Origin: Squalus acanthias
Lineage: Eukaryota
Direction: 5' to 3'
Assembly: GCA_030390025.1 (NCBI GenBank)
Contig: CM059435.1
Span: 48,980,001 to 49,044,000, forward strand
DNA: 64,000 nt
Of the stretch, positions 15,501 to 44,476 are shown one piece after another (the first letter of the stretch is position 1; the number at the start of each line of letters is the position of its first letter). Position numbers and translations under genes: made by a program. The notes below the pieces were generated by a model. The model saw only the letters and a program-made list of their open reading frames with translations. It had not been told where the DNA came from and searched no databases.

Positions 15501-16569
15501 GACTTACATACTGACATGGGCAAATGCAATGTTAACATTAATATGTTGAAAGCATGTAATATTTCATGGATGTTAATGGTGGGATTACTTATTTTAAAAT
15601 CAGCTGCCTTTACTATTGTAATGCATAGTGTTTTCTTTCCCTCCATGTGTGTGTGTGAGAATTTTGGTGTTTTTTTCAAGTGCAATAGCCAGGTTTTATT
15701 GTGTTTTTGTTATTAAATTTGCCAAGACTCTATTGTTGAGAGTGTCTGCAATTTTGTGCTGCCTAATTTAAACAAAAATTAAATGTTACAAACCTAAATA
15801 CGTTCTTCACTGTAGAGCTTTTTTTTTTTTGCTTGTTAGCATTTTCTAAAGTAGTCAAGTTTTAACCTGAATCCTTCCCTCCTCTCTCATTTCCCCACTC
15901 CTCCAAAAAATGGCTGCACAGAATAACTTTTATTAAATATTCCACTGTGAAATCCTCCTCCTCGTCTCCAAACAAATTTTATGCTGATCAAGGCAGGGGA
16001 CACAATCTTTGCATTTATACAGCACTGTATCCCATTTTTCCTCAGTGTTTCACACAATGAAGCACTTTTGTTTTTTTAATTGTAGTTCACTTCCACTTAT
16101 GTACAACTAATAATCAGCATTAAGCATCCACTAAAATAAAACTTTGTAACTACTCCGTGGCTAGCCCCCTGCTTCTGAAACAGCTGTTCTGATTTTGAAT
16201 TAAAGCTTGCATTTCAAAAATGAAAAACACAACGCCACTTAACGATGAAAGGCTAATCAGCCTACATTTATTACAAATAAAAATCCATTCAAAACAGGCA
16301 TGAAAATTTTCCCTGGACTAGTCTGTAAGCTCTCAAACTAACAAATCAAATATACATGTGGATGCAATTTCACTGGACCCCATTTCAACAGGACAGTACT
16401 TAGGCTACTGATCTGCTTGGTGTCAGTAGCTGCCCAAGATGACAGTTTGACAAATCCTCCATGTTGACTGACAGATGAACCAACTTAACTGTAGACAGGC
16501 CAGTAGTGTAGCAGCCACTTATTGGCTTGAGGTCACCAGGCATCAGGAGACTGTCAATCAAGTGGGAAA

Positions 16570-17159
16570 CTAACTACCTTGCATCAGATCTTCCCTCAAG
16601 TAATATTTCAGACTGTCCATCAAAGTGTTATTGAATAAATCTAAACCAACATCAGATAAGTAATCTCCTCTACCAACATAAAGAGCTTGACGCTTGATGT
16701 CAAAATAAGGGTGTTCTATGAATCTTTGACCCTTGTATTCCATGTATTGTTTTATTACCCCATTCACAGTTTTCCTAACATGCTCAAGTAGAGCACCAGG
16801 CTGAAAAGCCCATTTAGGACGTGGGAGTAACTCTGAACACACCAATACAGTATCTGGTAATAGGCCTTCCAGTGCTCCCAGCACCTCTTTTGCCATGTAC
16901 ATTATATCACTACCCTGGGTGAAGCCTATCTCATTATCTCCCAAATGAATGAGCAGGTACTTTGGGGGCTGGTGTTGTGCCAGGTGATGCATTAACAGGT
17001 CATGGAGCTGGTGCCATCTCAGGTCAGGTGTGCTCAGCCAATGAACTGAAAAACCACGTTTATCAAGGCCAAGATTGATCCCGTACGGTTTGTTGACTGC
17101 TCTGTCACGTGCCTGGCTGATGATCACATGTCCTGCTATCCACACAGTATTCTGGGTGT
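16570..17159 (-). CDS. Intact SGNH-hydrolase-like domain exon, candidate alternative last exon of NCOA5
   Basis: Acceptor ttatttatgtttcag|AC (phase 1). 196 uninterrupted codons with VWIAGHV, GINLGL..VHW, PKYLLIHLGDNEI, VLVCSELLPRPKW and GRGDYLSDVGLDLFN. AATAAA on - at 16267-16272 and 15929-15934. Confidence 0.65.
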
Positions 17160-20069
17160 CTGAAACATAAATAATACCCTGTTGAGCCAGAAGGAATAAA
17201 AGGATGTATTGCCTCACTGCTTTACCAGAAAAGGGATACAAGAGGCTTATGTGCAATTATATCATTGCTTTGGTCATCACGTGCAAGACATAGGCCATTG
17301 CACGCGACTGGTCTTCTAGCAACGTACATGATAAAGATAAATCTCCCAAACAAGCAAGCTTAGTTGGGAATCACTTATCCTTAGATCATGAGGGGACACC
17401 ATTACAGGTAGCAATGCAGCAGCGCCATTTAGTTTCTCCTCCCCTTCCTCAAACACAATTCAGCTTCTTCATTCCTCCCTGTCCAACCCCAAATAAAATA
17501 AAAGGGATCACAAGGGGAAGCTGACATTACAGTTTGTGCCTTCATTGTCCTATAATTGACACCATCATCTCCACCCTCATCTGATCTTGTTTTCCTTTTC
17601 TAAGGATCAAGCACTCATAACAAGCAGAGGCAGACTGATGTTCCCTCTACTCTGCCACATATCCTGAAACTCTCAAGCTCAGAACACCCATTTATGCACA
17701 AATATGAATCTCAGTTCCAATCCAAGCCAAACTGAACAGCCTTGCATCATAAGCATTTCTGTGCTGTACAATTACATCTAAAGAAACAGAGTTGGTGTAA
17801 ATGACAGCCCTAAAGACTTGAGGCCTCCATTTCACACATAGCCATTACAGACAGCGAAAGACTTAGTTTAGGACTGATTCACATCTAGATCACAGATGGA
17901 AATAACCATGCATAGATTACATACGATGTCACTAGACATATTTACTATATCAATACTAATAAACTAAGGGGGAAAAACAAACTATTGTTGCACCAATTCT
18001 CAATCCATTGGTTCCAATTGCTCCCTGTACCACATTAAATTCTACTGAAATCAGTTAGGGAAAATGCCTACCACACCCATTTGAAAAATTTCACATGGCT
18101 ACAATTACACTTTACTCAAAACTTAAAGACAGTAATATAGCTAGTTGCCTTCTTTGTTCAACAATGGCATGTGGCTGGGAAAGGGAAGTAAAAACAGTCA
18201 GGTAATGGAGAAAAAGACAATTACCAGTTAATGCTCAAGTAATGTGCAAACTACCTGGTGACAAAAACACATCTAGCCATCACCATTTAAAAGCTGGTAG
18301 ACAATTGTAGTCTTTCTGGTCATCTTGATCATGACTGTACACTAGATTGCACAGTGGTCAATAGGACCAGTGATATATGCACTTACATCTGTCATCCTCT
18401 GCACCATGAAACTCTTGCTCTTGGCTGATCTACTGCAAGGAAGGAAAACCAATCACATTGGACCATTCTCATGTACTGTACAAATTGAGAAAAGCCAGGG
18501 AATTTATTTAAAAAAAAACAGGTGTTGATTCAGCCAAATTAATCCAGGTAATCTGAAGACTCCATAGCAGATAATCTTACCAGACTGTTGCACTGTACAA
18601 TTGTTAAACTAGTTAGCCTCAACAGTTTGTAATCAGACAACTTCACTTCCATTATTTGTGCAGAATTCAGATGTAACTACTTTTTTTTGTTGCAGATTTA
18701 CAGATTGTATGACTGTTCAAATGGGCTCAGCTCTAATACATCAAGGTTTTTCCAATTTAATAAAGCAGCCTTCTTTATTTCATCCTCAAACTTCTATTCT
18801 ATTTAAAAAGGACAGAGATAAAAGTACCAGTCTAGATCCCCACCCTAACTTCTCCATGGTTGGCCTCGAGTATATTGTTCACAACTTGTACTTGGGTAGA
18901 CACATCCCCTCGAAACCCCATCTTTCCAATGTTACTGCAATGAAAGTTCACAACTCCATTGCTGTCAATTTCAAGCATTTCAGCAATACCTCAGTTTCAA
19001 AAGAGGTTGATTAAAAAAAAAAATTCAAACAGACTCTCCCACACTAATTTCTGCTGCTGCAATTCTCTCGTCACTGCTCGAAATTCAACCTCACTCATCA
19101 ACCTTTCTTGTACAGATTTCAGCAGTGAAAACAGTTCATTTTAGTCTGACTGGAATGATTCCCAAAGAGTTGCCACTGGATTTCTGCCACCCACCTTTGC
19201 TCAGGTTTTGGACTCATGAAAACCTTGACTGTTACCATTACTCTTGTAACTTCCTACCTATCCATAGTATATATACACACACAACCAAAGGGGGAAAATG
19301 GAAGAGAAACCTTTATTCTTTACAAACCAGATGAAAGTAGTGACTCAAACATTGAACTACCAAGAAATATACAACAGCCACCATTCCACAACTGCAAATG
19401 GCACTGGCTACAAATTAAGCATGTAAAACACTTGCTCACAGCTGCAGAGGGTGTACACAACAAGAAAAAGGGGATCACAAATGTAACAGAAAACCATAAA
19501 ACTTACAAAAGTCAATTTTACAGAACCGTAATGACAATGACAAAACCTGTCTGGCCTAGGATCTAAATTATAAAAGAAAAAAGTGACAAAACATTAAAAT
19601 ATAAAAACTTGTTTACTTTAGTAAGAGGTCTGCTATCCTGGATTTTAGTTACATTTTTAGAAATATCCATTTAAAAACACTGGATTCAGACTGCAGCATC
19701 ATGCTTTAATACACAAAATCATCTGGTTAACATTTCAATTTTTTTTATTTTAAAAGATCAAAGTCAACATAAACCAAGTGATTGCGATTAAGGCCTTGTT
19801 CATGAACAAACGTAGTTTTTTTTATATACAGTTACAAGATAAATTCAGAGTGCCTTTATAAAAAGTTTCTCATTACCTGGTTACTGTAAAATCATAACTG
19901 ACTTTTTAAACACACCTGAACCCAACAGTAACCAATGTTTGAATGAAGCACTCTTTCGATAACCTACATTTGTTTATGAAACCTTAACAGGTGGCCTTAA
20001 AGGAGTTCAATGGGTGTGCTGACTGCTCTTCCTTAAGGGCAACTCCCTCCCCTCCCCCTCACCCCAGGC

Positions 20070-20725
20070 TCAGTAGTGGCGCTGGTAAGATGCCATAGAA
20101 GCCTGGTTCATTGGCTGCCCAGGGCGTGGTACCTGGGTAGAAGCCTGGTTTACCAAGTGGGATAGAGATGGACCACTCTGAATCAGAGTATCCAATGCTT
20201 TCTGCACACTAGGGTTATCAAAGTTTATACCTGTTGCAACACCAGATCTCTGGGCCTGAGACAAAGCACTTGACTGATTGGGGGTTGGACCTCGAGGCTG
20301 CTGCTGGCCATAGAGACCTTGGGTTTGAGGCAGAGGTGAGCGAATGGCAGTGGCTCTCGGTGCAACTGCTTGACTCATTAAAGATGGAAGTTGTGAATTA
20401 GGACCTGTTACGCGCTGCTGAGCTTGAGATAGATACGAAGAGTTACTGAGACCAAGCTGGCCAGCTCGGTTTTGAGGCTGGGTATTCATTGCACTTCCAT
20501 AAGCTGGGCCCTGTGTTCCTGCAGTATTTGTATTTGCGCCAGATGCTCCACTGTTGAAGAGGCTTAGAATCTTGGCTTGCAGCTCCTGCTGCTGTGTTGC
20601 TTGTGCATCCTGCGGTCCTCCCTTCATAGATTGAGCAGTTGGTAGTGACTGCTGTGCATCAAGTGGGTTCATTCCTACGGAACCCATGTTTGGTCTAGGC
20701 AGGGGAGCTGGATTGTGAACTGAAC
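20070..20725 (-). CDS. NCOA5: NCOA5 coding exon 9 (last)
   Basis: Acceptor ttttcttgacag|GT. QQELQAKILSLFNSG, GINFDNPSVQKALDTLIQSGP and the terminal SYQRHY-stop match human NCOA5. AATAAA on - at 19312-19317. Confidence 0.96.
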
Positions 20726-22257: not shown

Positions 22258-22572
22258 CATGCAAGGAGTCTCCTCCCCGAAGGAATCGTTCCTTTTTCTC
22301 TCTCAGGTATTCTATGATCTTATCAATTTCCTCTATGGTAAGGTATCTTCCATCAGCAAGCAAGTTCAGAAGTGGCTGGATGCTGGGGGGATTGCCTCGC
22401 TCTTCCATGCCCCCTTGGGTAGGCTCCCGTTCGCGCATGATTACTTCATCCGCCATTTTAGCTGCCTTTCTCGCAACTTCTTCCCGCTCTTTTTCACGCG
22501 TTTCCGTCTTGTACCTCTCATAGTTGCGTGCAACCAAGATCATGGCATCAGCCATTGGCATGTTACGATGCT
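22258..22572 (-). CDS. NCOA5: NCOA5 coding exon 8
   Basis: atatccag|AG...CATG|gtaac; EHRNMPMADAMILVARNYERYK...LLNLLADGRYLT; 315 nt, phase 1-1. Confidence 0.96.
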
Positions 22573-24560: not shown

Positions 24561-24760
24561 CCTGTGGTGTTCCAAACAGGATATTGACTGTACACGATCT
24601 GTGTATTTCATGTTGTTGAGTAATAACAATAGCAAATGCCGTGCCTCCCCTGCTGACATCTTCAAGAGCTTGTGTAAGCGAAACTTCAGTATTCAGAAAT
24701 ATCAAATCGACCACCATACCGAGGTCACGAACCTTTCGACCAACAGACTCTGCATATTCC
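24561..24760 (-). CDS. NCOA5: NCOA5 coding exon 7
   Basis: ttgaacag|G...CAGG|gtaag; EYAESVGRKVRDLGMVVDLIFLNTEVSL...FGTPQ; 200 nt. Confidence 0.97.
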
Positions 24761-26133
24761 CTGTTCAAGTACAAAAAACAGAATTTAACATCTACAGGTT
24801 AAGATCTACAAATTAAGATCTACATGCAAGGAACATCACGGGCCAGCCGGTGGATCCGGGGGTGATGGTCTAGACCATTGCGATTGCGGGCCAGCAAAGG
24901 GTGGGGAAAAGAGGAGGAAGAGAGAAATCGGAGGCCTCCGATCGAGAGGGGTGGGTTAGGTAGGGATGCTGGATTCAGTAGGCAAGTGTAAAGGCACTTA
25001 CCTCCTGCATCCACCACACCTCACGAGGTGTGCAAAACCTGACCAGCTACAGTTAAATTCAAAATGGACGTTAGAGGCTTCCAGCCTCATTATATTTAAA
25101 TAGATGACCCACCTCCTGGCAGCGGATTGGCCCACCCCTGTTAATCCGGAAATTGAGGCGTGTTCCAGTTGTGATTCACATTTTTAACACCAACTACCCC
25201 CACGTCCCCAACCCACCCTTTTTTAGGTTAAAATTCCCCCCAATAAAACCAGACTAACTTAACTGTTACAAAACATATTTTCTCAGATATTCTCGCTACA
25301 CAACACAAAAACAGTAGAAAAGCAAAGTTGGAGAAACAAAAGTACTCAAAGTCTCCGAGGTAATCAGATCTGAAACACTGCTGCAAAGTGACCCTATTGA
25401 AAACTGCTATTTCTATTGAACAAGGACCAGGTTCTCCTGCCAGAGCCTTGGGAATTAATCAGTCATAGTACCCAAGATTAGATTGGTCCCAGTTGGGATT
25501 TGATAAGCTTTCAAGGGAAAAAAAGTCACAATTCTGGAGAAGCAGACAATAGCATCCCTGTAGATGCCCCAGGATACTCCAAAGAACAAAGTCTTCAGTA
25601 ACATGAAACCTAAAAGGAGGCTGCAGCCACAGAACAGTTTATTCTGAAGCAAGACTGAAAGGCAATTTTTTCAGCTTTAGAAACACAAGAAATAGGAGGA
25701 GTAGGACATACGGGCCATTGAGCCTGCTCCGCCATTTAATAAGATCATGGCTGAACTTCTACATCAACTCCACTTTCTTGCCCTATCCCCATATCCCTCG
25801 ATTCCTTTCGTTCCCAAAAATCTATCCATCTCAGTCTTGAATATACTCATCGACTGAGCATCCACAGCCATCTGGGGTGAAGAATTCCAAAGATTCACAA
25901 CCCTCAGTGAAGAAATTTCTCATCAGTCCTAAATGGCCAACCCCTTGTCTTGAGACTATGCCTAGTTCTAGACTCTCCAGCCAGGGGAAACAGCCTCTCT
26001 GCATCTACCCTGTCAAGCCCTCAAAGAATCTGGTATGTTTCAAGGAGATCACCTCATTCTTCTAAACTCTAGAGAATATAGGCTCATTCTACTCAATCTC
26101 TCCTCATAGGACAGCCCTCTCATCCTAGAATCA

Positions 26134-26340
26134 CGAGAAGTCGCACAACACCAGGTTATAGTCCAACAGTTTTATTTAAAATTACGAGCTTTCGGAGCTG
26201 CTGCCCCTTCGTCAGGTAGAGGCAGGGGCAGCAGCTCCGAAAGCTCGTAATTTTAAATAAAACTGTTGGACTATAACCTGGTGTTGTGCGACTTCTCATT
26301 TTTGTCCACCCCAGTCCAACACCGGCATCTCCGCATCATG
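26134..26340. mobile_element. Penelope-like palindromic insertion, variant subfamily
   Basis: TSD-like atcctagaa at 26122-26130 and 26341-26349. Perfect 74-bp inverted arms 26135-26208 and 26224-26297, plus tail. Confidence 0.82.
26183..26218 (-). ncRNA. Minimal hammerhead ribozyme motif (variant)
   Basis: UAC-CUGACGA-A-GGGGC(AGCA)GCUCC-GAAA-GCUC-GUA. Confidence 0.68.
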
Positions 26341-29300
26341 ATCCTAGAAATCAATCTAGTGAACCTTCGTTGCACCCCTTCTAAGGCAAGTATATCCTTC
26401 CTTTAGGCAAGGAGACAGTACTCAAGGTGTGGTCTCACCAAAGTCTTATATAATTGCAGCAAGACTTCCTTACTCTTGTACTCCAACTCCCTTGCAATAA
26501 AGGCTAACATACCATTTTCCTTCATAATTGCTTGCTACACCTGCACTTTAACTTTGTGATTCGTGTACAAGGACCACCAAATCCTTCTGAATACCAACAT
26601 TTACTAGTCTTACCTTTTAAAAGAATATTCTGCTTTTCGATTCTGCCCATCAAGGTGGCTAATTTTTCACATCCACATATAGGATTACATATGATATACA
26701 GCACAGAAACAGGCTATTCAGCCGAACCAGCCCATGCCGGCGTTTATGCTCCACTTGCGCCTCCTCCAGTCTTTCCTCATCTAACTATCAGCTTACTCTA
26801 TTCCCTTCTCCCTCATATGCTTATCTAACCTCTCCTTAAATGCATCCATACTATTTGCCTCAACTACTCCGAGGTAGCGAGTTCCACATTCTCACCAGTC
26901 TCTGGGTAAAGAAGTTTCTTCTAAATTCCCTATTTGATTTTTTGGTGACTATCTTACATTGATGGCCCTTTTTACTCCATCTGCCTTCTTCTTGCCCAAC
27001 CACTTAACTGGTCTATATCCTTTTGCAATCTCTCTGCGTCCTCCTCAGAGCTTACTTTCCCACCTAGCTTTGTATCAGCAGCAAACCTGGATATATTACA
27101 CTCGGTCCCCTTATCCAAGTCACTGATATAGATAGTAAATAGAGGCCCAAGCACCGATCCTTGCGGCACTCCACTAGTTAAACCCTGCCACCCCTGCTAT
27201 TCCTACTCTTTTCTGTCCAGTAACCAATCCTCAATCCATGCGAATATATTATCCCCAAACCCATGAGCCCTAATCTTATGCAACAATCTCTTGTGTGGCA
27301 CCTTATCGAATGCCTTCTGAAAATCCAAATATACTACACCCACTCGTTCCCCCTCATTTATCCTGCTAGTTACATCCACAATAAACTCCAATAGATTTGT
27401 CAAACACGATTTCCCTTTCACACAACCGTGATGACTCTGCCTAATCAGTGATTTTCCAAATACTGTACACTGTTACCACATCCTTAATAGGAACTTTCTA
27501 TTGTGGGAAAACAACCATGGAGAAGTGGGAAAACCAACCATGGAGAAATACACACACTCAAGGGGCTTCACAGTCAGTGTTCTTTGTTGAAAGGCATTTC
27601 CAGTAGCTATGTTTTGTCGGTGGCCCAAAATTCAGACATTTAGCAGTTTACATCCAAGTCTATTGTGCAATGCTGCTAAGGAGAGATTTTTTGTTGACTG
27701 ATGAGAAATGGAGCCCATACCCAGGAAATTTCTCAAATTTACATGGAGTCCAGGATTGACAAGTGCACAACAACTGCCACATTTTATATATTAGTAACCC
27801 TGCCAAAGAGGTTAAGTTTCAGTTAGAGCTGCCAGTGCAAATTGTGCTAAGTATTCAACTGCACCAGGCAAGCTATACAGTAAGAGTACACTGGGGCAGA
27901 GGCACACCAGTTAACACCTGGTCTGCAGACTGACCCAGCCTTGGGGGGGGTGGTGGGGGGAAAAGAGAAGAGACAGTAAATAGCTACATCAGCAATTATA
28001 TGTACCAGACATGAAGGTTTCCAAAAGCTCCCAGCAGTTGACCCCCCTATATACCTAAAGAAAAACTCCAAAGGCAGGTGGCAATTGGAACATTAAGCAT
28101 CCACGAATATAGGATGCAAGAGTAGCCAGTTAGTACAAGAATAAATGCTGGCACATAGTGCTCAATCCCAAACATGGGGAAAAAGAGTGTTTTGCAACAC
28201 GCATCACAAAATCAGAACCCACTACAGGCAGAGAAAACAGAACTGATGCTAAATCGAAGGTAAGTGCTATATAGATTCGATAGGAAGAGTCAGTCAAGAT
28301 GTCCCACAAGAGAAACCATTGCCTTTGTAACTTGCCCTCGTCAATCTGGAGTTTAGTTTCTATTGCTGCAATGACAAAAACAAAAAAACTGCACTTTACC
28401 CCTCCCTTTAATATAGATTTTTAATTGGTATTTAACTATCCCTGGTCGGCAGCAGCATGCCCCAAAAGCAGTACCATAGAACCCTATTATAGTGCAACGA
28501 GAAAACAATGAGGCACTGTTAAGAAATATCATAAATTAGTCCCCTAAAAATCGATGGCTCTAGCTAAATAAGCAGCCTAATGCTTTTTGTTTTGACCAAG
28601 GCATAATGTCCAATATAGACTGAAGCACGAAGAGCACTCTAAGCTCACCGCAATGTGATGCTTCCAGGATACAGGTAAACCCCAAGTTTCTGGAATAGGA
28701 CAGGCTATAAACAGCTATCCAAATGGCAGAGTTGTGGGGTATACAATACTAATGAATTCTAAGCTTTCCTTTCATTTTGTACCTCTTTTCCCATTACAAG
28801 CCACTTCAAAAGATCAGCCATTTGGAACACCATCAAAATTTTCAATTTTGTGGAGTCTACAGTATTAATGGCTTATTGGTCCTATGCCAAATTGTGCTGT
28901 AACAGGTGGTGCAGTTCTTCAGAGTACAAATACACATAGCATAAGAGTGGAAAGAGATTTGATTCTCCTCACCAAAAGGAGTTCCTAATTTCAACCAGAA
29001 GGGGGAGGAGAAGAGAAAGGCAGGGAAATCATTCACAGGTGGCAGTTGTGTAGCTCAAACTGCTTTTCCTGCATCAGAGCACACTGCCAGAGCTGGTGGA
29101 TAATAAGAACTGGGGGAAATAACTTAATTTAACTAAATCTGTAAAATAACCAATTTCAACAAAAAATTACAAGTCAATGTAGACTCCTAACTCTAGACTC
29201 CAACAAGTTCCTCCTAATAGAGTGCGAAGTATTCCAGAGGAATTCTATATATATTTAGTACGATCACAAAGCAGTTAAAAATAGTTTGTGTATGTTCGAT

Positions 29301-29419
29301 CAGGCAAAGCAGAAAGATTACAAAGACAGCCGTCCTCGCGAATATTCTAATTCAATTTTACCTATGTTTTCCTCGTCGATATAAAAATTGAAATTGAAGT
29401 ACTTATCCAACAGCACAAA

Positions 29420-29590
29420 ACAGATTATCTAGACATCACATTGCTGTTTGTGGGACCTTGCTTGCAGAAATTGGCTGCCATGTTTCCTACATTACAATGG
29501 TGACTACACTTCAAAAGTACTTCATTGGCTGTAAAGCACTTTGGGACATCCTGAGGTCATGGAAAGGTGCTATATAAATACAAGCATTTT
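29420..29590 (+). mobile_element. SINE 3' half (same family as 32200 and 35470)
   Basis: cattgctgtttgtggga...cttcaaaagtacttcattggctgtaaagcactttggga...tgctatataaatacaag is shared with the other copies. Confidence 0.8.
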
Positions 29591-29604
29591 CCTCTTTAAC
29601 TCAC

Positions 29605-29728
29605 TTTTGCTGTTTGTTGACTACAATAACTGAACAATCCACAGGTCTTTCAGCATCATAACGTCTCTGGATTTCATCATAATACTGCCGATACAGTTCT
29701 TCTCTTCGGCGCTCTCTTCTCATAGGAT
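29605..29728 (-). CDS. NCOA5: NCOA5 coding exon 6
   Basis: ttttcaag|AT...CAAAA|gtgagt; DPMRRERRREELYRQYYDEIQRRYDAERPVDCSVIVVNKQQK; 124 nt. Confidence 0.96.
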
Positions 29729-31089
29729 CTTGAAAAAAAAACACATTAAACCAACTTAGATTTTAAATTCATCTGTTCTACCATACTTATGATTACTGCT
29801 TGCTGCAAGCTCATTTTTTTCACCCCAGCAGCTGTTATGTGAGGAGTTCCAAGAACCAGGAGGCCACCCGTGAGCAGAGGGGAAACCAAGGGCGGGGGAA
29901 AGAAGAAACTATTCTCTCCATTTCTCCTCCGAAGCCCCCACTATCCATCTCTTTTCCTCCCCCCACCCTGGTCTCCCCCCCAATCTTCCGAGCCCCCATT
30001 TTCGGACTTCGAGCCCCAACCTCCCCCCACAAATGCGATTTCAAGGCTCCCGATTCTCGGAAACTTGAGTGAGACGTGATGTTGCACGGTGCAGTTCCCG
30101 GCTTTTGTTGAATGGGAAGCTTCCCAACATCCATTGTAGCAGAAAAATGCTCTATCACTGGGATAGAGCCGTGCAAGCATTCAATCCCAAAGATAGAGCG
30201 GTTACTCTGCCGCTATAGATGCTGGGTAGAGATCTCCATTCCATAAAAGCCGTTTCTTCCACCTCGCACTTACTTGCACATCCAGTTTTAGATTTGAAAG
30301 CATTGATGGCTGCCCGTAGTTCATAATTTGCAAGTGTCCATGGTTTCAAGGTGCAGCTTATATCTATTACAAGTTATTTGAGACGGTCAATAAGTGCCTG
30401 TTATTTGCACGTGTCCGTTTGTATAGGTTTCACTTTAGTTCCATCCCTTTCAAAGGATGCATCAATCAAGCAGCATGATCATGAAGCAATCTAGTGGAAA
30501 GGAGACTACCTAGAAAAATGTAGAGCTGAACAGCCATGAAAGCCAGATCATCTGTCAGCACTGCCTCCTTGGGTCTGGGATACCCCAACACACTGGATGC
30601 TAAAACCAAGTTGGACAGGAATACGTTTTGCTGCAAAGGCTGGAGAAACGAGCACACTCCTTTTAGAATCACTATGCATAGGTCACATTCCTGGGGAAGC
30701 CCTATTGGATTGTCAAGCAAGCTACTGGAGTATTTAAAACATTACTGCCAGAAATTACTAAATTTTTCATGTGGAACAGCAGGACTGCTTCAGACAAGAA
30801 AGGGGGCTGGTGACAGAATGTGAAGTCTTAAAAAGGCAGTGTCCCAAGATTCTTCCACAAGTACCTATGTGGAGGATGAAAAAGAATCTAAAGGTATGGT
30901 ACAAACATCTGAAATTATTTTCCATACTGACCACCAAAAAGCTAGAGCACTATAAAATCATACACAAAGTATATAAACTTACTACAACTTGAAACCTTTA
31001 TCACCTAAAGCATTTGCTAGGCTACGTACAATAATGCATAATTCAGTCCATTCTCTTCCTTGAGCTTGGATATCTGCCCTATGACGTAC

Positions 31090-31208
31090 CATCAACTTCA
31101 CGAGGCGCCCTGGGATCCCATGGCTCCCGGAATCTGTCCATATAGGGCTCCTCTTTCCTTCGCAAAATATCATCATAGCGATAATACCGATCATAGACTT
31201 CTTCCCGT
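31090..31208 (-). CDS. NCOA5: NCOA5 coding exon 5
   Basis: cattgcag|A...GATG|gtacgt; REEVYDRYYRYDDILRRKEEPYMDRFREPWDPR, compared with human REGSYDRYLRMDDYCRRKDDSYFDRYRD; 119 nt. Confidence 0.92.
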
Positions 31209-32199
31209 CTGCAATGCAAAGGGTTATGGTTGAACCATGAGAAACACAGATCTTACTGAAAAACAAACTCTAAAATTCAATAGTGAAAATATTTTAGTTT
31301 CAATTAGACTCAAAAGGTTTGTGCCACAAAGTAAATATCTAACCATTTGCTTCGCTAATAAGAAAACCAAATCGAACAGAATTGCAAAATAAGATACTTT
31401 ACATGTTTGGAACAATTCAGCTTCATACACAAACTAATGTGGGCCATCATCCCACAGGCAAATTTAGAGCACTGTTCCTTTAAGAAAAGGACACCAGTTG
31501 TTGAGAGATCTTTCCTTGCTCTATTAAGAGGCTTTGCTCTCAGTTCTTTGTCTGAAAATGAAGCACCAACACTCCAGGAATAAAAAGGCACTGAAGCAAG
31601 ACACCATAACCTCAAATCATTATCGGGTCAAAGATTAGAAGCATGCTCTATACATGTAGGTTGGACTTCAAAAAGGAAGTCACTGAAAGTAAGTGAATTA
31701 CTGGTAATGGAATTTCCACTTTTAAAGAAAAAAAAACTGCATACTACATGCGTAGTGACACATAGCTTGCCACTTTTCCTTATTTGTTCAACCACCAAAT
31801 ACTAGTTAACAACAAATTGGAGCTGGTCTCAGACAGCTGATCCTTCAGCTACACGATAATACCCAAACACTAGTCTTGACCAAAAATACCAGGACAATAA
31901 CTGCAGAGAGAAATTACAGCACCAGGTACTTGCTGTACAGAGGGTACATATGTCGATCCTTCTCTCTTCTCTGGTGAACCAGATCCAATAAAGGGAAGGA
32001 ATCCTTTCTCAAACCACTTTTGTTAACTTGCTTAGTAAATAGTTTTGATGATTTCATCCTGTATGAGACAAATAACTTTGCCATGAGGATACTCCACCCT
32101 ATCCACATAGCAAGCTATTGCCCTACATGTATAATGACAACAGTACTTCCTCTCAATCAAGATACAAAGTGATGGACAAAACCTTCCTGCCATTATCAA

Positions 32200-32605
32200 G
32201 GTGTCCACCTTGGCTCAGTGGTAGCACTCTTAGTCTGAAAGTTATGGGTTAGTGCTCCACTCCAGAAACTTGAGCACATAATCTAGGCTTTTACTTTAGT
32301 GCAGTACTAAGCGAGTGCTGCACTGTCAAGGTGCAGTCTTTCAGATAGTACGTTAAATGTCTTCCCTCTCCAGTGGATGTAAAAAAAATCCCATGGCACT
32401 ATTCAATGAGGAGCAGGGGACTTTCCCTATCCTGGTGAACATTTATCCTTCCAACCATTATCTCACTGCTGTTTGCAGACTGTTGGCTTCCATATTTTCC
32501 AACATTACAACAGTAGCTACAATTCAAAAGTACTTCATTGGCTATGAAACACTCTGGGATATCTGCAGGTCATGATAGATGCTATACAAACATGATTTTT
32601 CTTTT
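32200..32605 (+). mobile_element. tRNA-derived SINE (Deu-domain/SacSINE1-like), decayed
   Basis: A-box tggctcagtggtag, a degenerate B-box, and body and tail shared with 35470-35917. Confidence 0.75.
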
Positions 32606-35469
32606 CTTCATATTATCCCAACAATGGCAAACACGTTCAGACACAAATGAGGCCTGAACATGGGACTTATCTGCAAGTGACATTAAGTAGAGGATCCAAC
32701 AACACAAAGTTCATCAACTATATGCTACAGTAAGAGTGAAGTTGCAGTTTTGAACTATAAAAGCTGGAGATCAAGAACACATGGGCTCAAATGGCTGACT
32801 TTAGTTTGCTCAGAACCAAATTTAGTTTGCATGCTGTAACTTAAATGACCACACCTTCCAGGGCCCTTCATGGAAGTGAAACACTGAGGTGCTTTCCCTA
32901 TGGCCCTACCCAAGGATGGTTAGAAGACTGAAGTAAGAACCTTGAGGAAGCCCAGTGCATCAAACCAGAGTACTGAAGTTGAGACACTAGTATACAACGC
33001 ATTTCTGCTCGTCTTGCATACTTTAAAGTATATGTTTTCTGAAGGCAGGTAGTCACTATTGACTGCTAACAACTCTAGGCTGGGCTCTCAATAGCCATAC
33101 CAAATAGAAATCCTGCAGGCTACCCAGCTTGTTTAATTGGCTCCAATGGTTCACTTTATATGGGACCTTGTAAAAGTTACTGATGCACTTGGCTAGCAGG
33201 TCAAAGTAACTGATCCTCCTGGCCCAGTAATGCATTCCTTTCCAAATAACAATGAGAGGGAACAAGAGAAGCTGTATACAACAGCACAGCATCAAAATTA
33301 GGTGAAAAGATTGAGTCTAAAACAGATACATTCTTAAAAAGCCCACAGTATTTACTTGGAACATTGTCAAAACTCAAAAATAAACAAGGGGCTTAATATG
33401 GAACATTAAGCTAATGACAACCCACTTTACGTCTGTAATACGGATGATAAAATTACACTATTTACAGTATTTTTGGTCTCAAGTACATACTCATAACAGA
33501 AATACCTTTTATTACAGGAATAGATATTACACCTTCGCCAACTACATGAGCCTTTGTAGAACATGGCTCCACCAGTGCATCTTTAAAGGGAATGGTCTTG
33601 TAACTGCTCCATGGCCAACCACAATTACACGCAAGGTAAATAACCTTTGCAGCAAGGTGATTCTGAACCAATATGATTCCACCTGCAATATTACTCATGC
33701 GGAGACACTCAACTGGGAGAAAATTCACTTCTTTTCATATAAAAAGGCACTGATAGCAAACGATTATTCTGTTGTTGCAAATCACAGACAATGGAAGTGA
33801 ATATAACATACAAGGCATGTGGGGGGGGGGGGGAGAATCATCGGTGTGGAAGAGGGTACAAGACAACAGAAATTACCTTATGCAAAGGGTGCGTGTAGGA
33901 GGTAGCTGAGCAATCATTGCAGAAAAAGCAAGTTATTAAATTCCCTGGCAATGTCTTATAGACACTTCCTTATTGACCATGTTTGGGGTTTGCTACGAAC
34001 TGCTCGGCTAAAATAAAAAATGAATCACTTTGACCGTGTTAGAAGTGCAAGCAAAAGCTACCGACACGGGGGGACTTCAACCAGGCATACATAAACTGGG
34101 AACACAAGTGGGAAGGATGCTGAGCTCATCAAAATAGCATATGATTGCTCCCTAACCCAGGTGCCGCAGGAGGCCCACGAGAAACAAATCTCTTCCAGAT
34201 CCACTTATTATGCAAATTAGAAATAGCTGAACTGTTAGACAATTATAACAGCAGGACAATTTCTGGCTTGGGAAACAGTGCAGCAATGGAACAAGAACCG
34301 AGAGATATGGGGAGGTGGTAAAAGCAGTTTTAAAAAGTTTGTATGGAGAGAGAAGAGGCTGACCATTGGACCAAGTACAAGATTGTACAGCAACAAATCG
34401 GAGAGATTAGGGGTACCAAAAGAAAACTGGAAAAGGTTATTGCTGCAGGAGCAAAACATGAACGCTAAAAAATTCTTACAATAGCATTAACAGCAAGAGG
34501 GTAATCAGGGAAAAACACGATAGTTGACATGCTAATTGACTGCATGGAGGGTTTATTAAACCAGGGAAGACACATCCAACATCAAACAAACAATCAGTTG
34601 TGTCCAAGACTTTGACATTAACAAAACAGAGGTTGTCAGGTGGTGATGTTACAACAGACAAACGTAGTTCCTTATACAAGAACGGTAACTGTATCTAATA
34701 GCTACAAACCAACTCTCCTGACCTCAATTGGAAAATTACATAACCAAAATGGAAGAGCACCTCTGAAAATAACCAGTGTATGCATGATGTGAACTACCAA
34801 TAGACCATGGACTCAAAAGGCAGCTGAGATCTTATGGGTTCATCAGTGGAAACTAGAAAAATGCACAATGGAAGCAAAGAAGAATGCACTCCAGTGGCAG
34901 ATAGAGCTCACCAATGGGGAAGTTAAAGGCCCATGGGTGTTAGTCACTCAGCACGTCTAAACCAGTATTGTCCAATAGAAATTGCCGACTAGCCAGTGAC
35001 AGTTTTAGCCACATGCACCAATTTTAGTAGAAAACCCCTTACGCACACGGAATACAGGTAAATGTATTCACGTGCATATTTATTTAAATATCTAACACCA
35101 TTCAGTAACGAAGGAAGTAAACCATTGCACGATTACAAACCACTCACGCATAGCTTTTCATCTGGCCATTTCACCAACAAATGGCACAAAAGGGTTAAGT
35201 ACACATGCATATGCCATGTAAATGAGTATGAGACTACGTGCCCAACGACTGTGCCTATTACTCTTATTTACTAGTCAGAAATACAATTATCCACACCTGG
35301 ATTCCTATTTTGCCATGCGTGACTAGTTGCTAATGTTTTTGGACAACATGGGCCTAAACATTAGGATATTAAAGTAAATAACAACTTGTATTTGTATAGC
35401 GCATTTAATGTAGTAGAACATCCCAAGGCGCTTCACAGGAGAGTTATAAAACTAAACAACTAACTAAAG

Positions 35470-35917
35470 GAAGGCTTGCATTTATACCGCGCCTTCCACA
35501 ACCACCGGACGCCTCAAAGCACTTTACAGCCAATGAAGTATTTTTTTTTGAAGTGTAGCCACTGTTGTAATGTAGGAAATGCGGCAGCCAATTTGCGCAC
35601 GGCAAGCTCCCTCAAACAGCAATGTGATAACCAGATAATCTGTTTTTGTTATGTTGACTGAGGGATAAATATTGGCCAGGACACTGGGGATAACTCCCCT
35701 GCTCTTCTTCGAAATAGTGCCGTGGGATCTTTTACATTCAAATGAGAGCAGATGGGGTCTTTTATGTCTCATCTGAAAGATGGTACCTCCGACAGTGTAG
35801 CACTCACTCAGTACTGCACTGCAGTGTCAGCCTAGATTTTGTGTTCAAGTCTCGAGTGGGACTTGAACCCACAATCTTCTGACTTCGAGGCACTACCAAC
35901 TGCGCCACAGCTGACAC
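35470..35917 (-). mobile_element. Near full-length tRNA-derived SINE (Deu-domain/SacSINE1-like)
   Basis: The - strand head gtgtcagctgTGGCGCAGTTGG...GGTTCAAGTCC contains A and B boxes; the tail ..tataaatgcaag resembles the L2 tail. Confidence 0.82.
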
Positions 35918-36020
35918 TGAAATTAGGGCAGATGACCAAAAAGAGTGGTCAAAGAGTTAGGTTTTAAGGAGGAAAGAGAGGTAGAAAGAGGTTTAAGGAG
36001 GAAATTCCAGAGCCTAGGGC

Positions 36021-36250
36021 CCCAGTGTCCTGGCCAATATTTATCCCTCAATCAACATAACAAAAACAGATTATCTGGTCATTATCACATTGCTGTTTGA
36101 GGGAGCTTGCTGTGCGCAAATTGGCTGCCGCATTTCCTACATTACAACAGTGACTACACTTCAAAAAAGTACTTCATTGGCTGTAAAGTGCTTTGAGGCG
36201 TCCGGTGGTCATGAAAGGTGCTATATAAATGCAAGCCTTCCTTTAGTTAG
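36021..36250 (+). mobile_element. SINE 3' half, inverted relative to 35460-35688
   Basis: Close reverse-complement match, including the terminal ttcctttagttag. Confidence 0.82.
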
Positions 36251-39088
36251 TTAGAGGCAGCTGAAGGCACGGCTGCAAATGGTTGAGCGATCAAAATCAG
36301 GGATGCTCAACAGGCCAGAATTAGAGGAGCGCAGATATCTCGGGGGCTGGAGGAGATTAGAGATGGGAGGGGAGAGATCATGGAGGGATTTGAAAACAAG
36401 GATGATAATTTAAAAAAAAGGCATTGCTTAATCAAGAGACAATATAGGTCAGTGAGCACAGGGGTGATGGATAACAGGACTTGGTACAAGTTAGGACACA
36501 GGCAGCAGAGTTTTGGATGACCTCAAGTTTACGGAGGGTTGACGTGGGAAGCCAGCCAGGAGTGCGTTGGAATAGTCCAGTCTAGAGGTAACAAAGGCAT
36601 GGATGAGGGTTTCAGCAGCGGATGGGCTGAGGCGGGGCAGAGTCGGGCAATGTCACGGAGGTGGAAATAGGCGGTCTTAGTTATGGCACGGATGTGTGTT
36701 CGGAAGTTCATTTCAGCGTCAAACAGGACACCAAGGTTGTGAACAGTCTGATTCAGCCTCAGACAGACACTGGGGAGAGGGATGGAGTCAGTGGCTAGGG
36801 AACGCAGTTTGTGGCAGGGACCGAAGACAATGGCTTCGGTCTTCCCAATATTTAGCTGGAGGAAACTTCTGCTCATCCAGTACTGGATGTCGGACAAGCA
36901 GTCTGACAATTAGAGATAGCGGAGGGGTTGAGAGAAGGTGGTGGTGGTGAGGTAGAGCTGAGTGCCGCCAGCATACCTGTGGAAATGGAAGCTGTGTTTT
37001 TGGATGACGTCACCGAGGGGCAGTATGTAGATGAGAAATAGGAAGGGGCCAAGGATAGATCCTTGGGGGACACCAGAGGTAATGATGCGGGAGCAGGAAG
37101 AGAAGCCGTTGCAGGCGATTCTCTGGCTACGATTAGATAGATAAGAATGGAACCAGGCGCGTGCGGTTCCACCTAGCTGGACGACTGTGGAGCTAACAGG
37201 ATACTAAAGTATCGTGCCACATGAGTTGAATACTGCCACGAGTTGAATTCAAACATCAGATCATGCTGAAGCTGTACCAGAACCAGACTACGGCCACATT
37301 TGATATACTCAGCATGACTGTATAAGCTAGGGCTCTTTAGCCTCAAGTAGTATGTCAGAAGGGGCCTCTGGGAAGTATACAAGACACCACTGGATAAAGT
37401 AGACCCAAAACATTGCTTCTATATACTGCCAGGGCATTAAAACAAGAAAACAATAATTGAGAATTATGAAGGGTGTCTTTTAGGACAGAGGTCAATTAAG
37501 TATTTCTTTGCACAAAGGTGATCAACAGCTAGCAAAGATGTGAAAGGCCAGGAAATTGGGACACATTTAAGAAACATCTAACTGCGGTAGTGGGAAGACA
37601 GCAAGACTGCTATACTAGAAAGAAGAGATCAAATAGGCTGAATGATCTCTCATCTAAACCTACTTTGTGAAGTGTACCACTGGAAGACAGGAAAGACAAA
37701 TGTACAGGTTGCCAGTACCCCATGGGAGTTTGGAGTTGACAAAGAGACTGCAATTTTGTCTAGGCAAAGCACAACTGGAGGTGTAATCAAAAAAAAAAAC
37801 ACAAAACTATAAATTAAACTTGAATAGCTTCAAACTTCAATTAAACTCAATTTACAAAGTCAAGAAGAAACCAAAAGGGGAACACTGAGCAAAGCATCTT
37901 TAAAATACTTGCATTTATATAGAATCTAATGACATCAACACACTTCAAAACTGCAGATTACTAAAGTGCAGTAACTTTAGAGAAAACCAATGGTCCCCAA
38001 ACAGCACCAAAATGAGTAATTAGTCAATCTGTTTTACTAACTATATTGGTTGAGGGAGGAATGCTGGCTAACACACCAGAACACCACTCTTTCAAAAAAA
38101 AAGCCATGGGACACAAAAAGGGTAGAAGAATTAATGCCACATTTGAGACAATACACTGGAGCAGTACCCCGAGCCACAACTTTTGACTCAGTTAAAACAG
38201 TCAAGTTAAGTAACACCGTCTTTTATGGTCGAAGGAAAAAAATCACATAACTGCAAAAAGCAGTTTCTTTTAAAGTAATGATACCAAGTGATTTCTCCCA
38301 ATGGTTGATGACCTACAGTTCTATATGGCAGTGTTATCCAATCCATTAGCCATATGTAGCTAATTGGGAATCCAGATTTGGGATATTTCATTTCTGATTA
38401 GTTAGGTAAAAAAAATGAATTGACATTGATGGGAATGTTATCTCAAAACTCATTTGTCGTGTTTACCTTTTTGTTCATTTGTTAGTAAAATGGTAACACT
38501 GAAAGCAGAATGAGTGTTTTGATAATTTGAGTGCTTTATTTCCTTGGTTACTGAATGGTGGTAGATGTTGGTTAAGTAAATATACATATATGAATACATT
38601 TACATGTATTTTGAGAGTGCATGTGGTTAAAACTGTCGCTGTGGCTAGCCAGTGATTTTTACTGGATAGCATTGCTATCTGGTGTGCAAGCCTGAAATGA
38701 AGAATGACAATTGGCTAGCATGGTCTAATTTAATATATTCTAATTAATGTATGAAATTTCTGTACAATAAACCATGACTGCAAGGTTCCAATTTGCTTTG
38801 ATTAGTTCAGTAACCAAACTGCAAAATCAAACAGAACACAAGCACAAGTTTTAATGTCACTGACCATGATCCTCAGTATGTTCCAATTATTCATTTTAGG
38901 GCTCGCTCCGTGTAAATACCCAGTGACCCGGAACCTTGAGAAATTTCGCCCAGTCTGTGCGGTGTGTCTGTATCCCGGGATGTAACTGGACAACAGGGGA
39001 GACTGGCACCCTTCATAAAACCAACAGATTTAAGCATCTAAAACATGTCTTTTTTGGGGCTGCAAAGGTGAATACTTGAGTGAGTTGT

Positions 39089-39160
39089 GTAATGGTGGTG
39101 CAGTGGTAAGCATGGTTGCCTTCCAAGCAGATGACCTGGGTTCAATTCCCAGTCATCGCA
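39089..39160 (+). tRNA. tRNA-Gly(TCC)-like sequence, probably a retrocopy/pseudogene, at the 5' end of a CR1
   Basis: 72 nt, GTAATGGTGGTGCAGTGGTAAGCATGGTTGCCTTCCAAGCAGATGACCTGGGTTCAATTCCCAGTCATCGCA, aligning end to end with vertebrate tRNA-Gly-TCC. Changes are consistent with CpG decay and disrupt the acceptor stem. No oligo-T terminator follows. Confidence 0.8.
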
Positions 39161-42020
39161 CCTCTGATACAGCGCGGATCTGAGCGGGAGCGGCAGCAAC
39201 TGCTTAAAGGGAGCACCGGAGAAGGCCCAGGACACAGCGCAGACCTGAGCTGGAGTGGTGGCAGCGGCTCAAAGGGAGCTGAATGGCGACTTAAAAAAAA
39301 CAAGGAGTGATGTCACAGGACAGCAGGAGGCGGAGTATAAATCGAGCAGGAGGCCCAGAGAGAGTGCACAGACTGGAGCAGCGGCAGCAGCGAGGAGGCG
39401 GAGTACCTCCAGCAAAAAAAAACAAAAGCAACAATTGCAAAACAGCTAAAGTGACTTCACAACCAGGGAAGGAGCTGATTGGTGAGTAGCTGATGTTAAT
39501 AGTCTATTAAGTAAAGGCATGGCAGGGCAGCTCAGTCCCATGGAATGCACATCCTGTGCCATGTGTGGACTCCAGGAGGTTTCTTGTGTCCTGGACAACC
39601 ACATGTACAGTAAGTGTCATCAGCTGGAGGAGCTCGAGCTCCAAGTTTTGGAGCTTGAGCAGCAGCTGGTGTCACTGCGGTGCATCCGTGAGGCTGAGAG
39701 CTTTGTGGATAGCACGTTTCAGGAGGTGGTCACGCCGCAGATAGAGTGTGCAGGCAGAAAGGGAATGGGTGACCACCAGACAGAAGAGGACCGCCAGGCA
39801 GGTAATGCAGGAGTCCCGAGTGCATCTCGCTCTCCAACCAGTATTCGGTTCCAAGTACTAGTGAGGGTTCCTCTGGGGAGTATAGCCAGAGCCAAGTCTG
39901 GGGCACCACAGGTGGTTCAGTTGTACAGGGGGGGGGGGGGGAGGAAGAAGAGTGGGAAAGCAACAGTGATAGGGGATTAGATAGTTAGGGGAGCAGACAG
40001 AAGTTTCTGCGGCCACAGACGTGACTCTAGGATGGTATGTTGCCTCCTTGGTGCCAGGGTCAAGGATGTCACCGAGCGGCTGCAGAACATTGAGGCGGGA
40101 GGGTGAACAGCCAGAGGTCATGGTCCACATCGGTACCAACAACATAGGTAGAAAGAGGGATGAGGTCCTGCAGGCAGATTTCAGGGAGCTAGGATAAATA
40201 GATTAAAAAATAGGACCTCAAAAGGTAGTAATCTCCAGATTAGTCCCGGTGCCACGTGCTAGTGAGTATAGAAATAGGAGGATAGCGCAGATGAATGCAT
40301 GGCTGGAGAGATGGTGCAGGAGGGAGGGCTTTAGATTCCTGGGGCTACGGGACCTGTACAGGCTGGACGGGTTGGAACTCAACAGGGCTGGAACCAAGAT
40401 CCTCGCAGGGAGGTTTGCTAGTGCTGTTGAGGAGGGTTTAAACTATTTGGCAGGGAGATGGGCACCAGGATGTAACATTAGAAAGGGGAAATAAAGTGCT
40501 GAAAGGATTGGGAGAGTCAGAGAGCACTAAAGAAATAGTAAGGTATTAGGTGGGGTCCAACTAAGGAGAGAATACAGGATTTTCTACGATGGCTTTACAG
40601 TGTATGTATGTGAACGCACGAAGCGTAGTAAACAAGGTAAGTGAGCTGCAAGCATAAATAGCCACATGGGAATATGATGTTGTAGCAATAACTGAGACCT
40701 GGCTCAAAAAAGGGCAGGATTAGGTATTAAATATTTCTGGTTATAAAGTGTTCAGTAAAGATAGGAGGTGGTGTGGCAGTATTGGTCAAGGAGAATGTTA
40801 CCGTGCTGGAGAGGGAGGATGTCCTACAGGGATCAAGGACAGAATCTATTTGGCTAGGGTTAAGAAATAATAGAGGCGCCATTACACTACTAGGTGTATT
40901 CTATAGACTATCAAATAGTGGGAAAGATATGGAGGAGCAAATTTGCAAGAACTATAGAGTAGTAATAATGGGAGACTTCAACTATCCTAATAGAGACTGG
41001 GATCGTAACAGTGTTAAGGGCAGAGAAGGGGAAGAATTTCTGAAGTATGTTCAGGAGAACTTTCTTGATCAGTAGGTTTCCGGCCCGACGAGGGAGGAGA
41101 CATTGCTGGATCTGGTTCTGGGGAATGAGGTCGGTCAAGTGGAGCATGCGTCAGTAGGTGAACATTTAGGGAACAGTGATCATAGTGTCATAAGGTTTAG
41201 ATTAGCTATAGAAAAGGACAGGGAGCAATCTAGAGTAAAAATGCTTAACTGGTGGTGGTGGTGGGGGGGAAGGAGAGGGTGTGGGAGAAGGCCAATTTCA
41301 GTGGGATGAGAACACATCTGGCCCAGGTAAACTGGAATCAAAGATTGGCAGGCAAAACTGTCATGGAACAATGGGCTGCCTTTAAAGAGGAAATAGGTCA
41401 GGTACTGTTGAGGTGCATTCCCACTGGGGGGAAAGGCAGGGCAACTAAAGTCAGGGCGCCCTGGATGACGAAAGAGCAAGAGAATATGAAGCAGCAGAAA
41501 GAGCGCGTATGACAGATGTCAGGTTGCAAATACATCTGAGAATCAGGCTATATATAGAAAGGTCAGAGGAGAAGTGAAAAAGAAAATAAGAGGGTATGAG
41601 AATAGATTGGCAGCCAACATAAAAGGTAATCCAAAAGTCTTCTATAGGCATATAAATAGTAAAATAATAGTAAGAGGAGGGGTGGGGCCGATTAGGGACC
41701 AAAAAGCAGACCTATGCATGGAGGCAGAGGGTATGGCTGAGGTACTAAACGAGTACTTTGCATCGGTCTTCACCAAGGAAGAGAATGCGGCCATAGACAT
41801 AGTAAAAGGAGGAAGTAGTGGAGATACTGGATAGGATAAAACTTCATAAAGAGGAGGTATTAGAAAGGCTGGCTGTACTTAAAGTAGATAAACCACCAAG
41901 AGCAGATGGGATGCATCCTAGGATGCTGAGGGAATTGATGGAGGAAATCGCAGAGGTACTGGCCATAATATTCCAATCTTCCTTAGATGCCAGAGGACTG
42001 GAGAATTGCAAATATTACAC

Positions 42021-42927: not shown

Positions 42928-42990
42928 GGAAGTATAGCGAACAGTGAGGAAGTATAGCGAACAGTGAGGAAGTATAGCGAACAGCGAGGA
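42928..42990. repeat. 20-bp tandem triplication (ggaagtatagcgaacagtga) within CR1 RT
   Basis: Read directly. Confidence 0.9.
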
Positions 42991-44439: not shown

Positions 44440-44476
44440 TCACCTGACGAAGGAGCAGCGCTCCGAAAGCTTGTGA
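44440..44476 (+). ncRNA. Minimal hammerhead ribozyme motif (right arm)
   Basis: tcac-ctgacga-a-ggagc-agc-gctcc-gaaa-gctt-gtga. Confidence 0.7.

Follow-up and report, generated by a model that had tools for sequence, protein, structure and literature searches.

A candidate pseudo-esterase exon, likely of retrotransposon origin, in the 3' UTR of shark and ray NCOA5

Known transposon captures by splicing mostly provide DNA-binding parts of transposases. CSB-PGBD3 and SETMAR are described as splice captures in the available part of PMC12062965. In the fusions of Cosby et al. (KRABINER, CSB-PGBD3, SETMAR; bioRxiv 2020.05.07.082677), according to the portion of that preprint available to us, a downstream transposon ORF became a spliced terminal exon while the parental transcript was kept, and the acceptor lies just upstream of the captured ORF. 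The predicted arrangement at the NCOA5 locus of Squalus acanthias, analyzed here, is alike in both respects. However, it differs from those fusions, as that portion presents them, in that NCOA5 would capture an accessory esterase of a retrotransposon rather than a transposase or DNA-binding domain; in that its donor lies inside the last coding exon, the intron consisting of the retained tail plus 3' UTR; and in that the parental form appears dominant despite great age. The captured domain has an SGNH fold and contains no transposase, which places it outside host-transposase fusions in the strict sense.

Three SGNH proteins offer further comparisons. The ORF1p esterase of ZfL2-1/CR1 (PDB 4C1B) shares a transposon-encoded SGNH fold with the NCOA5 domain; it is catalytically active and co-purifies with liposomes, as stated in the accessible text of PMC3905857, whereas the NCOA5 domain belongs to a different subfamily (E 0.21 to 4C1B). 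The SGNH ORF of Ngaro-like elements (DIRS order) is of the same subfamily, with 28-38% identity and the shared motifs W-I-x-G-H, IHLGxN and R..N. In amphibian Ngaro-like elements this ORF follows the tyrosine recombinase (YR), and its function is called unproven in the available part of the source (bioRxiv 2021.08.05.455354); some homologue gene models likewise run from YR pieces into SGNH. Unlike that ORF, the NCOA5 domain is single-copy, has lost the catalytic triad, is fused to a host protein in gene models, and was seen with neither YR nor split direct repeats. The OSK domain of Drosophila Oskar (PDB 5A4A), like the NCOA5 domain, is an SGNH fold without the triad placed C-terminally on an RNA-regulatory protein. 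OSK, however, is of bacterial origin, is constitutive and has demonstrated RNA binding, whereas the NCOA5 domain has near-neutral charge and is predicted to be alternatively spliced. The NCOA5 splicing described in teleost gonad is, from the available part of PMC13604722, a separate event. The NCOA5-SGNH fusion is already present in public gene models as NCOA5 isoforms, where it has gone unremarked; a search of titles and abstract openings, with most subscription journals outside its range, found no description of it. An accessory retrotransposon enzyme seems to have been retained across sharks and rays, having lost its triad and kept its fold.

The SGNH frame and its predicted splice sites in NCOA5

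The window, that is, the whole 64,000-nt stretch of DNA analyzed, contains the entire NCOA5 coding gene on the minus strand, as located by tblastn with protein P0006. The features relevant to the fusion are as follows.

24561..59666, minus strand: upstream NCOA5 coding exons (tblastn with P0006, sequence; joint 24561>22572 in contigs)
22258..22572, minus strand: NCOA5 penultimate exon; its donor joins 20725, and none was seen joining 17159
20231..20725, minus strand: Q/P-rich part of the NCOA5 last exon, 165 codons, in both forms (joint 22258>20725 in contigs)
20312..20320, minus strand: second possible internal donor, AAG/gtctct (20318), fitting the Mobula join PLPQTQ/D of 9/41 models
20225..20233, minus strand: putative internal exonic donor CAG/gtataa, last exonic base 20231, phase 1 (SGVAT/D or SGVAS/D in 32/41 fused models)
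20070..20231, minus strand: canonical 53-aa NCOA5 tail, opening with GINFDNPSVQKALDTL (20231-20184), absent from the fused form (sequence)
17160..20230, minus strand: putative alternatively retained intron of 3071 nt, spanning the end of the NCOA5 coding sequence with its canonical stop, and 2.9 kb of 3' UTR (removal predicted from gene models)
17160..17185, minus strand: putative splice acceptor of the pseudo-SGNH exon, …ttatttatgtttcag (sequence; join residues DTQNTVW identical in 41/41 fused models)
16570..17159, minus strand: candidate coding exon for the pseudo-SGNH domain (D + 195 aa + TAG); the unspliced NCOA5 mRNA carries it within its 3' UTR (orthologues, AF2, SGNH fold)
16267..16272, minus strand: AATAAA, the distal poly(A) signal, at which the long transcript likely ends (contigs of four runs stop at 16288-16385)

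The upstream exons lie at approximately 59666-59472, 48520-48413 (RRM), 47699-47649, 44939-44796, 31208-31089, 29730-29604 and 24760-24561, and the 22258 donor and 20725 acceptor are both phase 1. On the plus strand, 54-145 of the window presumably represents the C-terminal, terminal coding exon of a KCC/SLC12A5 gene, convergent with NCOA5. The motif GINFDNPSVQKALDTL is present in 108/112 non-fused vertebrate NCOA5 proteins, and its opening Gly codon includes the GT of the 20231 donor. An Atlas search with the NCOA5 tail region gave no usable match, and literature searches returned no paper on this motif. The predicted swap would hit exactly the one motif that vertebrate NCOA5 keeps almost unchanged, and would offer both a natural swap experiment on the role of that motif and a host-retained handle on the binding partners of the Ngaro SGNH domain.

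The initial annotation had described a stop-free 590-nt ORF 2.9 kb beyond the NCOA5 stop (20072-20070) on the same strand, and this ORF was confirmed at 17159-16570; it comprises 2 nt that complete a phase-1 codon, 195 codons and TAG, within a stop-to-stop frame of 16570-17256. In 14 other species the frame is likewise open, with 77-91% identity, which excludes a chance open frame. The acceptor had been called a good phase-1 site at the domain start. Its position (the site ends at 17160) and phase were borne out, but the constitutive NCOA5 acceptors have stronger pyrimidine tracts (14-17/22) than this one (12/22). The AATAAA signals reported downstream are present at 16272, 15934 and 15700, and another lies within the ORF at 16756. 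Also in agreement with that annotation, flanking transposon remains were not seen: the window held no YR relic, and 15500-20069 had no other match in the rest of the window, where the longest LINE-like frames reach at most 241 aa (ORF list). A count of genomic copies had been proposed, many copies being taken to speak against the exon; a DNA search of the own genome (3.71 Gb) with 16300-17450, which skips very common words, returned this place only, a single copy of the ORF by DNA.

Transcript use was assessed in contigs from four of 23 listed public runs (X1, X9, X11 and X18; organisms A, C, D and E), which were compared with 14600-25000. That these runs are RNA is a guess; for X1, X9 and X18, joints at the ends of NCOA5 introns lend it support: 22258>20725 occurs in contigs of all three, and 24561>22572 also in X1 and X18. 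In each of X1, X9 and X18, one contig runs from NCOA5 through 20230-17160 unspliced to 16288-16385, endpoints that fall just short of the AATAAA at 16272, although contigs cannot fix RNA ends or starts. The X11 contig (18713-16330) is also unspliced, so that contigs of all four runs cross the 17159 acceptor unspliced. Given this read-through, the common NCOA5 transcript, the runs being probably RNA, carries the SGNH ORF in a 3.8-kb 3' UTR; the simple alternative last exon proposed initially does not describe that transcript. No joint into 17159 was among the 15 joints listed of 29. Contigs drop rare forms, and this lack bounds the abundance of the spliced form and is not proof of absence. In X18, 16292-17443 aligns as one complete block, as against a patchy alignment of the UTR upstream of it.

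That the ORF sits within abundant unspliced transcripts, and that the X11 contig starts at 18713, might be taken to favor a separate small protein made from the 3' UTR, from a downstream ORF or its own promoter, without any fusion. However, the first in-frame ATG is residue 56, initiation there would remove strand 1 and block I of the domain, and residues 1-20, upstream of this ATG, are invariant in the elasmobranch alignment. Moreover, poly(A) signals (18779 and 18761) lie just before the X11 start, and a contig does not reveal where a transcript begins. A stand-alone ORF was rejected on the position of the ATG and the invariant residues upstream of it, and we regard such a protein as highly improbable.

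Two further observations concern this part of the UTR. A possible mini-exon of 43-46 nt lies at 18387-18432 (minus strand) within the retained intron (ttccttgcag … acagat/gtaagt, with a strong donor); entered in phase 1, it leads to a stop, and 18399-18516 is among the few UTR blocks that align in X18. The signals just before the X11 start are AATAAA (18779) and ATTAAA (18761); a proximal poly(A) site near 18713-18779 would yield NCOA5 mRNAs without the SGNH exon.

Fused gene models and the predicted product

The nearest relatives of the SGNH domain at the protein level are all elasmobranch, and a search for longer relatives returned eight clusters, all of them elasmobranch NCOA5. Of 55 named proteins examined from these clusters, 41 carry the domain, 13 the canonical tail, and one is a fragment. 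The 41 fused models come from 14 species of sharks and rays (Heptranchias, Pristiophorus, Cetorhinus, Carcharodon, Rhincodon, two Chiloscyllium, Hemiscyllium, two Scyliorhinus, Mustelus, Pristis and two Mobula). All 41 models splice to the 17159 acceptor and make the exon the terminal one of NCOA5, as first proposed, and they use two donors, both of which are present in the window. In 32/41 the join reads SGVAT/DTQ or SGVAS/DTQ, corresponding to donor 20231; in the other nine, all from Mobula, it reads PLPQTQ/DTQ, corresponding to AAG/gtctct at 20318. One of the 41, GCC24972.1, is a non-RefSeq GenBank annotation with an identical join. Logan is named as the source for 0/41 fused proteins, and Logan contigs carry the ORF unfused. 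The fusion splice is a prediction of gene models, the junction being unobserved in the contig joints listed; in our reading, the Mobula donor and the non-RefSeq annotation speak against pure annotation propagation.

The initial annotation had instead placed the donor at 22258, giving a GGDSLH/D join and a translated product of about 618 aa (RRM, core and SGNH) in which the Q/P-rich tail is replaced. The phases are compatible with this, but GGDSLH/D is found in 0/41 fused models, and in contigs of X1, X9 and X18 the 22258 donor is spliced to the last exon, with no 22258>17159 join among the joints listed. The 22258>17159 join was rejected on the models, and we consider a protein made through it hardly tenable. 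With the donors at 20231 or 20318, the models keep the Q/P region and exchange only the last 53 aa. The predicted fused NCOA5 is about 783 aa (640 - 53 + 196) and about 87 kDa, with the predicted junction peptide SGVATDTQNTVW.

The domain was absent from all 10 Callorhinchus models, from all 13 skate-cluster members and from 112 scanned non-fused NCOA5 proteins. Among the models listed, which for one cluster cover 15 of 39 members, the fusion was missing in Amblyraja, Leucoraja, Narcine, Hypanus, Hemitrygon, Rhinoraja and Stegostoma. As far as annotations go, this distribution suggests that the domain was gained in elasmobranchs. The split between sharks and rays is roughly 270-300 million years old. 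A Logan cluster (P0001), probably of skates, has G73E and a shortened C-terminus, which suggests decay in some lineage.

Fold, lost catalytic residues and probable origin of the domain

The Pfam GDSL_2 match of the domain is weak (E 1.3e-4, below cut-off), and in the Atlas the domain was grouped with eukaryotic GDSL clusters at 0.97-0.98. A single-sequence AF2 model was poor (pLDDT 41), and an alignment-based model with 96 sequences (pLDDT 96.2) was used instead. The structural comparison that had been suggested for the 196-aa domain returned an SGNH fold: Foldseek gave E 1e-7 and TM 0.72, and the best folds were SGNH hydrolases, with VIA at Z 19.8 and rmsd 2.4 Å over 173 residues.

Catalytic positions were compared across 148 homologues (the best 150 of 994 relatives minus NCOA5-linked rows) and 15 elasmobranch domains. 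Ser, Asp and His are intact in 115/148 homologues; the triad is missing in the window domain.

17125..17127, minus strand: Val11 at the catalytic Ser position, block I (Ser in 134/148 homologue domains, Val in 15/15 elasmobranch domains)
17023..17025, minus strand: Asp45 at the oxyanion Gly position, block II (Gly in 131/148, Asp in 15/15)
16933..16938, minus strand: Asp74-Asn75, block III, Asn retained and the preceding Gly changed to Asp (alignment of 148 homologues and 15 elasmobranch domains)
16660..16671, minus strand: R163-G-D-Y166 replacing the catalytic Asp-x-x-His, block V (Asp in 138/148, His in 123/148 homologues)

The altered motifs by which the domain was first called catalytically changed, GHV, GDNE and GDYLS, are all present. 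Because of Val11, Arg163 and Tyr166, together with Asp45 and Asp74 at conserved glycines, hydrolase activity is very unlikely by established SGNH chemistry, and an active esterase was rejected on the lost triad. Among the 15 elasmobranch domains, block V has R, A or T at 163 and Tyr at 166, with His in Heptranchias alone. Val11, Ser42, Asp45 and Asp74 are fixed in 15/15, while 163, 165 and 166 vary; the fixed residues around the old oxyanion hole and the variable His side point to a remodeled acidic pocket, to judge from the alignment. An acidic residue at position 45 is found in 9/29 triad-broken and 2/115 triad-intact homologues, rows that are not independent; Gly to Asp is a single-base step, and the enrichment is only a lead.

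The resemblance to OSK (Z 17.5, rmsd 2.4 Å over 160 residues) raises the alternative that the fused isoform works as Oskar does: the dead SGNH fold would add a second surface for binding RNA, possibly in germ cells. According to the available part of PMC10792757, OSK binds RNA and is an SGNH protein without the triad; the host NCOA5 has an RRM, nine basic residues are invariant among the elasmobranch domains, and teleost models fuse related domains to cold-shock RNA-binding domains. However, the net charge of the elasmobranch domains is -3 to +3, whereas transposon-type homologues have a median of +6. In the list of similar SGNH matches OSK comes 16th, so that the match reflects the fold only, and OSK is of bacterial origin (PMC7250577, in the part accessible to us). 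We consider this alternative rather unlikely.

As to origin, the initial annotation had read the sequence pattern as typical of retroelement SGNH domains, naming DIRS-like elements and noting related esterases in LINE ORF1; scores and a tree point to the DIRS side. The window domain scored 85-105 bits against YR-linked domains and 30-39 bits against two resident CR1 ORF1 esterases. A careful 17-row tree split off the CR1 ORF1 rows at 100/100, identity to the genome's own CR1 esterases is 20-25%, and E to 4C1B is 0.21; an origin from a resident CR1 ORF1 esterase was rejected on the bits and the tree. YR pieces, recognized by below-cut-off Pfam Phage_int_SAM and Phage_integrase matches, HSFRIG motifs and phmmer links, lie just upstream of SGNH in 11/148 homologue gene models. 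In a quick tree the elasmobranch clade (100) stands on a long stem with no resolved sister. The domain likely derives, on sequence comparison, from a Ngaro/DIRS-type retrotransposon in an ancestor of sharks and rays, the choice of Ngaro over other DIRS-order groups following bioRxiv 2021.08.05.455354 as far as its available part extends. A metagenome scan for the DNA flanking a transposon-type homologue was negative, and the Ngaro link therefore rests on gene models and the literature rather than on a whole element. Neither the window nor, with 59/59 candidates scored, the own genome yielded a YR relic; the source family therefore appears extinct in this genome. With regard to a present-day transposon, there is no adjacent YR ORF, and one copy plus one decayed 65-codon relic was found; a young multicopy transposon was rejected on the single copy and the lack of a YR match in the own genome.

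The relic, the second protein-level match in the genome, lies on contig C12 (G000:C12:77274128-77274322; L002 1495-1692), carries a stop and is 43% identical. It corresponds to the first 65 codons of the domain, with 70% DNA identity over 149 nt, and is nearer to the NCOA5 SGNH exon than any transposon protein found. The surrounding 30 kb contained neither further domain pieces nor an NCOA5 paralogue. Within the window, a broken CR1 ORF1 esterase at about 39930-40360 (plus strand) represents a second, unrelated type of transposon SGNH.

Selection on the domain and its proposed role

The 15 elasmobranch domains differ by only two indels, each a one-codon deletion. Family-conserved sites kept by the window domain vary at 3/37 positions, as against 89/158 elsewhere (Fisher p 3e-8), and the substitutions are milder than expected under neutrality (equally mild in 49 of 20000 resamples). 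No stop occurs with 149 distinct missense variants, which 0/2000 neutral draws reach; annotation takes up intact frames only, a bias shared by this test and the frame (indel) test. In run X9, 0/10 listed deletions fall within the ORF (P 0.006, assuming that the X9 rows are listed in order), and 0/18 amino-acid changes fall at kept core sites (P 0.05). A dN/dS comparison had been proposed in the initial annotation, and here the outcome is divided: the protein-level constraint tests are positive, but the only codon-level test, of one pair (the window and run X9, organism C) over half the domain, gave a dN/dS of about 1.27 (18.5 non-synonymous and 4.5 synonymous changes in the C-terminal 105 codons). 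These 105 codons carry 0.073 changes per base, compared with 0.051 for the whole piece. The domain has a tree length of 0.93, compared with 0.39 (Q/P region) and 0.15 (NCOA5 core), and evolves about 6 times faster than the core. We read these data as purifying selection on the fold, with more freedom at the surface and with relaxation or loss in particular lineages.

The same data bear on the alternative of an old retrotransposon relic lying in a 3' UTR that changes slowly, with the splice as noise or annotation propagation and no functional protein. Contigs that are unspliced only, the dN/dS of that one pair, the several rays and skates without a fused model among those listed, and shark UTRs that are themselves 91-95% identical between compared species (contigs) would all fit such a relic. 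The avoidance of fold-core sites by variation, the one-codon size of all indels, and the sparing of the frame from X9 deletions and of its core sites from X9 changes stand against it, as does the different Mobula donor, which is unexpected under simple homology transfer. We consider the relic unlikely, and the data taken together indicate that this is likely a real, functional, domesticated pseudo-esterase exon.

The explanation that we favor, and hold to be probable, is that a conserved single-copy pseudo-esterase frame of Ngaro/DIRS derivation in the NCOA5 3' UTR is spliced 20231>17159 to swap the NCOA5 tail and serves as a non-catalytic binding module. A Ngaro/DIRS retrotransposon would have left its SGNH frame in the NCOA5 3' UTR of the shark/ray ancestor, and a splice from 20231 to 17159, probably minor or tissue-restricted, would exchange the invariant 53-aa tail for the SGNH domain. 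The resulting isoform of about 783 aa would retain the RRM, the core and the Q/P region, with RNA and complex binding likely kept; it would lose whatever partner binds GINFDNPSVQKALDTL and gain a new docking surface, the domain presumably acting as a non-catalytic binding module. In our own judgment, a protein or peptide is the foremost candidate ligand, at somewhat under an even chance, with a lipid or small acyl ligand less likely and RNA doubtful. Lipid binding is possible by analogy with the ZfL2-1 esterase and its liposome association (in the available part of PMC3905857), that esterase being of a different, active subfamily.

SGNH domains of this subfamily were also seen in other vertebrate gene models. 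In geckos (Sphaerodactylus, Paroedura, Gekko, Eublepharis; P0070-P0072, P0075, P0077, with P0074 and P0081 in the same clade), large models have one to six tandem SGNH domains, all without the catalytic His, which likely represents an independent domestication. Cold-shock (CSDE1-type) domains with a C-terminal SGNH domain occur in P0073, P0128, P0166, P0167, P0186, P0191 and P0208 (P0079 being in the same clade), with Alosa, Scleropages and Gymnothorax among the named species; the triad is kept in most, and P0073 has four dead SGNH repeats plus PRY-SPRY. In the quick tree, the gecko and teleost captures form separate clades. A broader and distinctly speculative possibility, which we think improbable, is that the Ngaro esterase was repeatedly taken over by vertebrates for use in binding, in many cases attached to RNA-binding proteins: to NCOA5 in sharks and rays and to cold-shock-domain proteins in teleosts, with the tandem dead repeats of geckos as a further case; and that the shark NCOA5 isoform was a decoy for the element's RNP or membrane partner and helped to extinguish the family. 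Single gene models join the SGNH domain to UEV, DSPc, EF-hand, Cir_N or Tc1-HTH (P0108, P0195, P0130, P0087 and P0217); these may be further captures or annotation artifacts.

Elsewhere in the window, a 25-nt minisatellite at 6070-6583 has 20.6 copies with 97% matches and is open in three frames, and degenerate arrays of 30 nt and 35 nt lie at 8441-9978 and 3748-4190, respectively.
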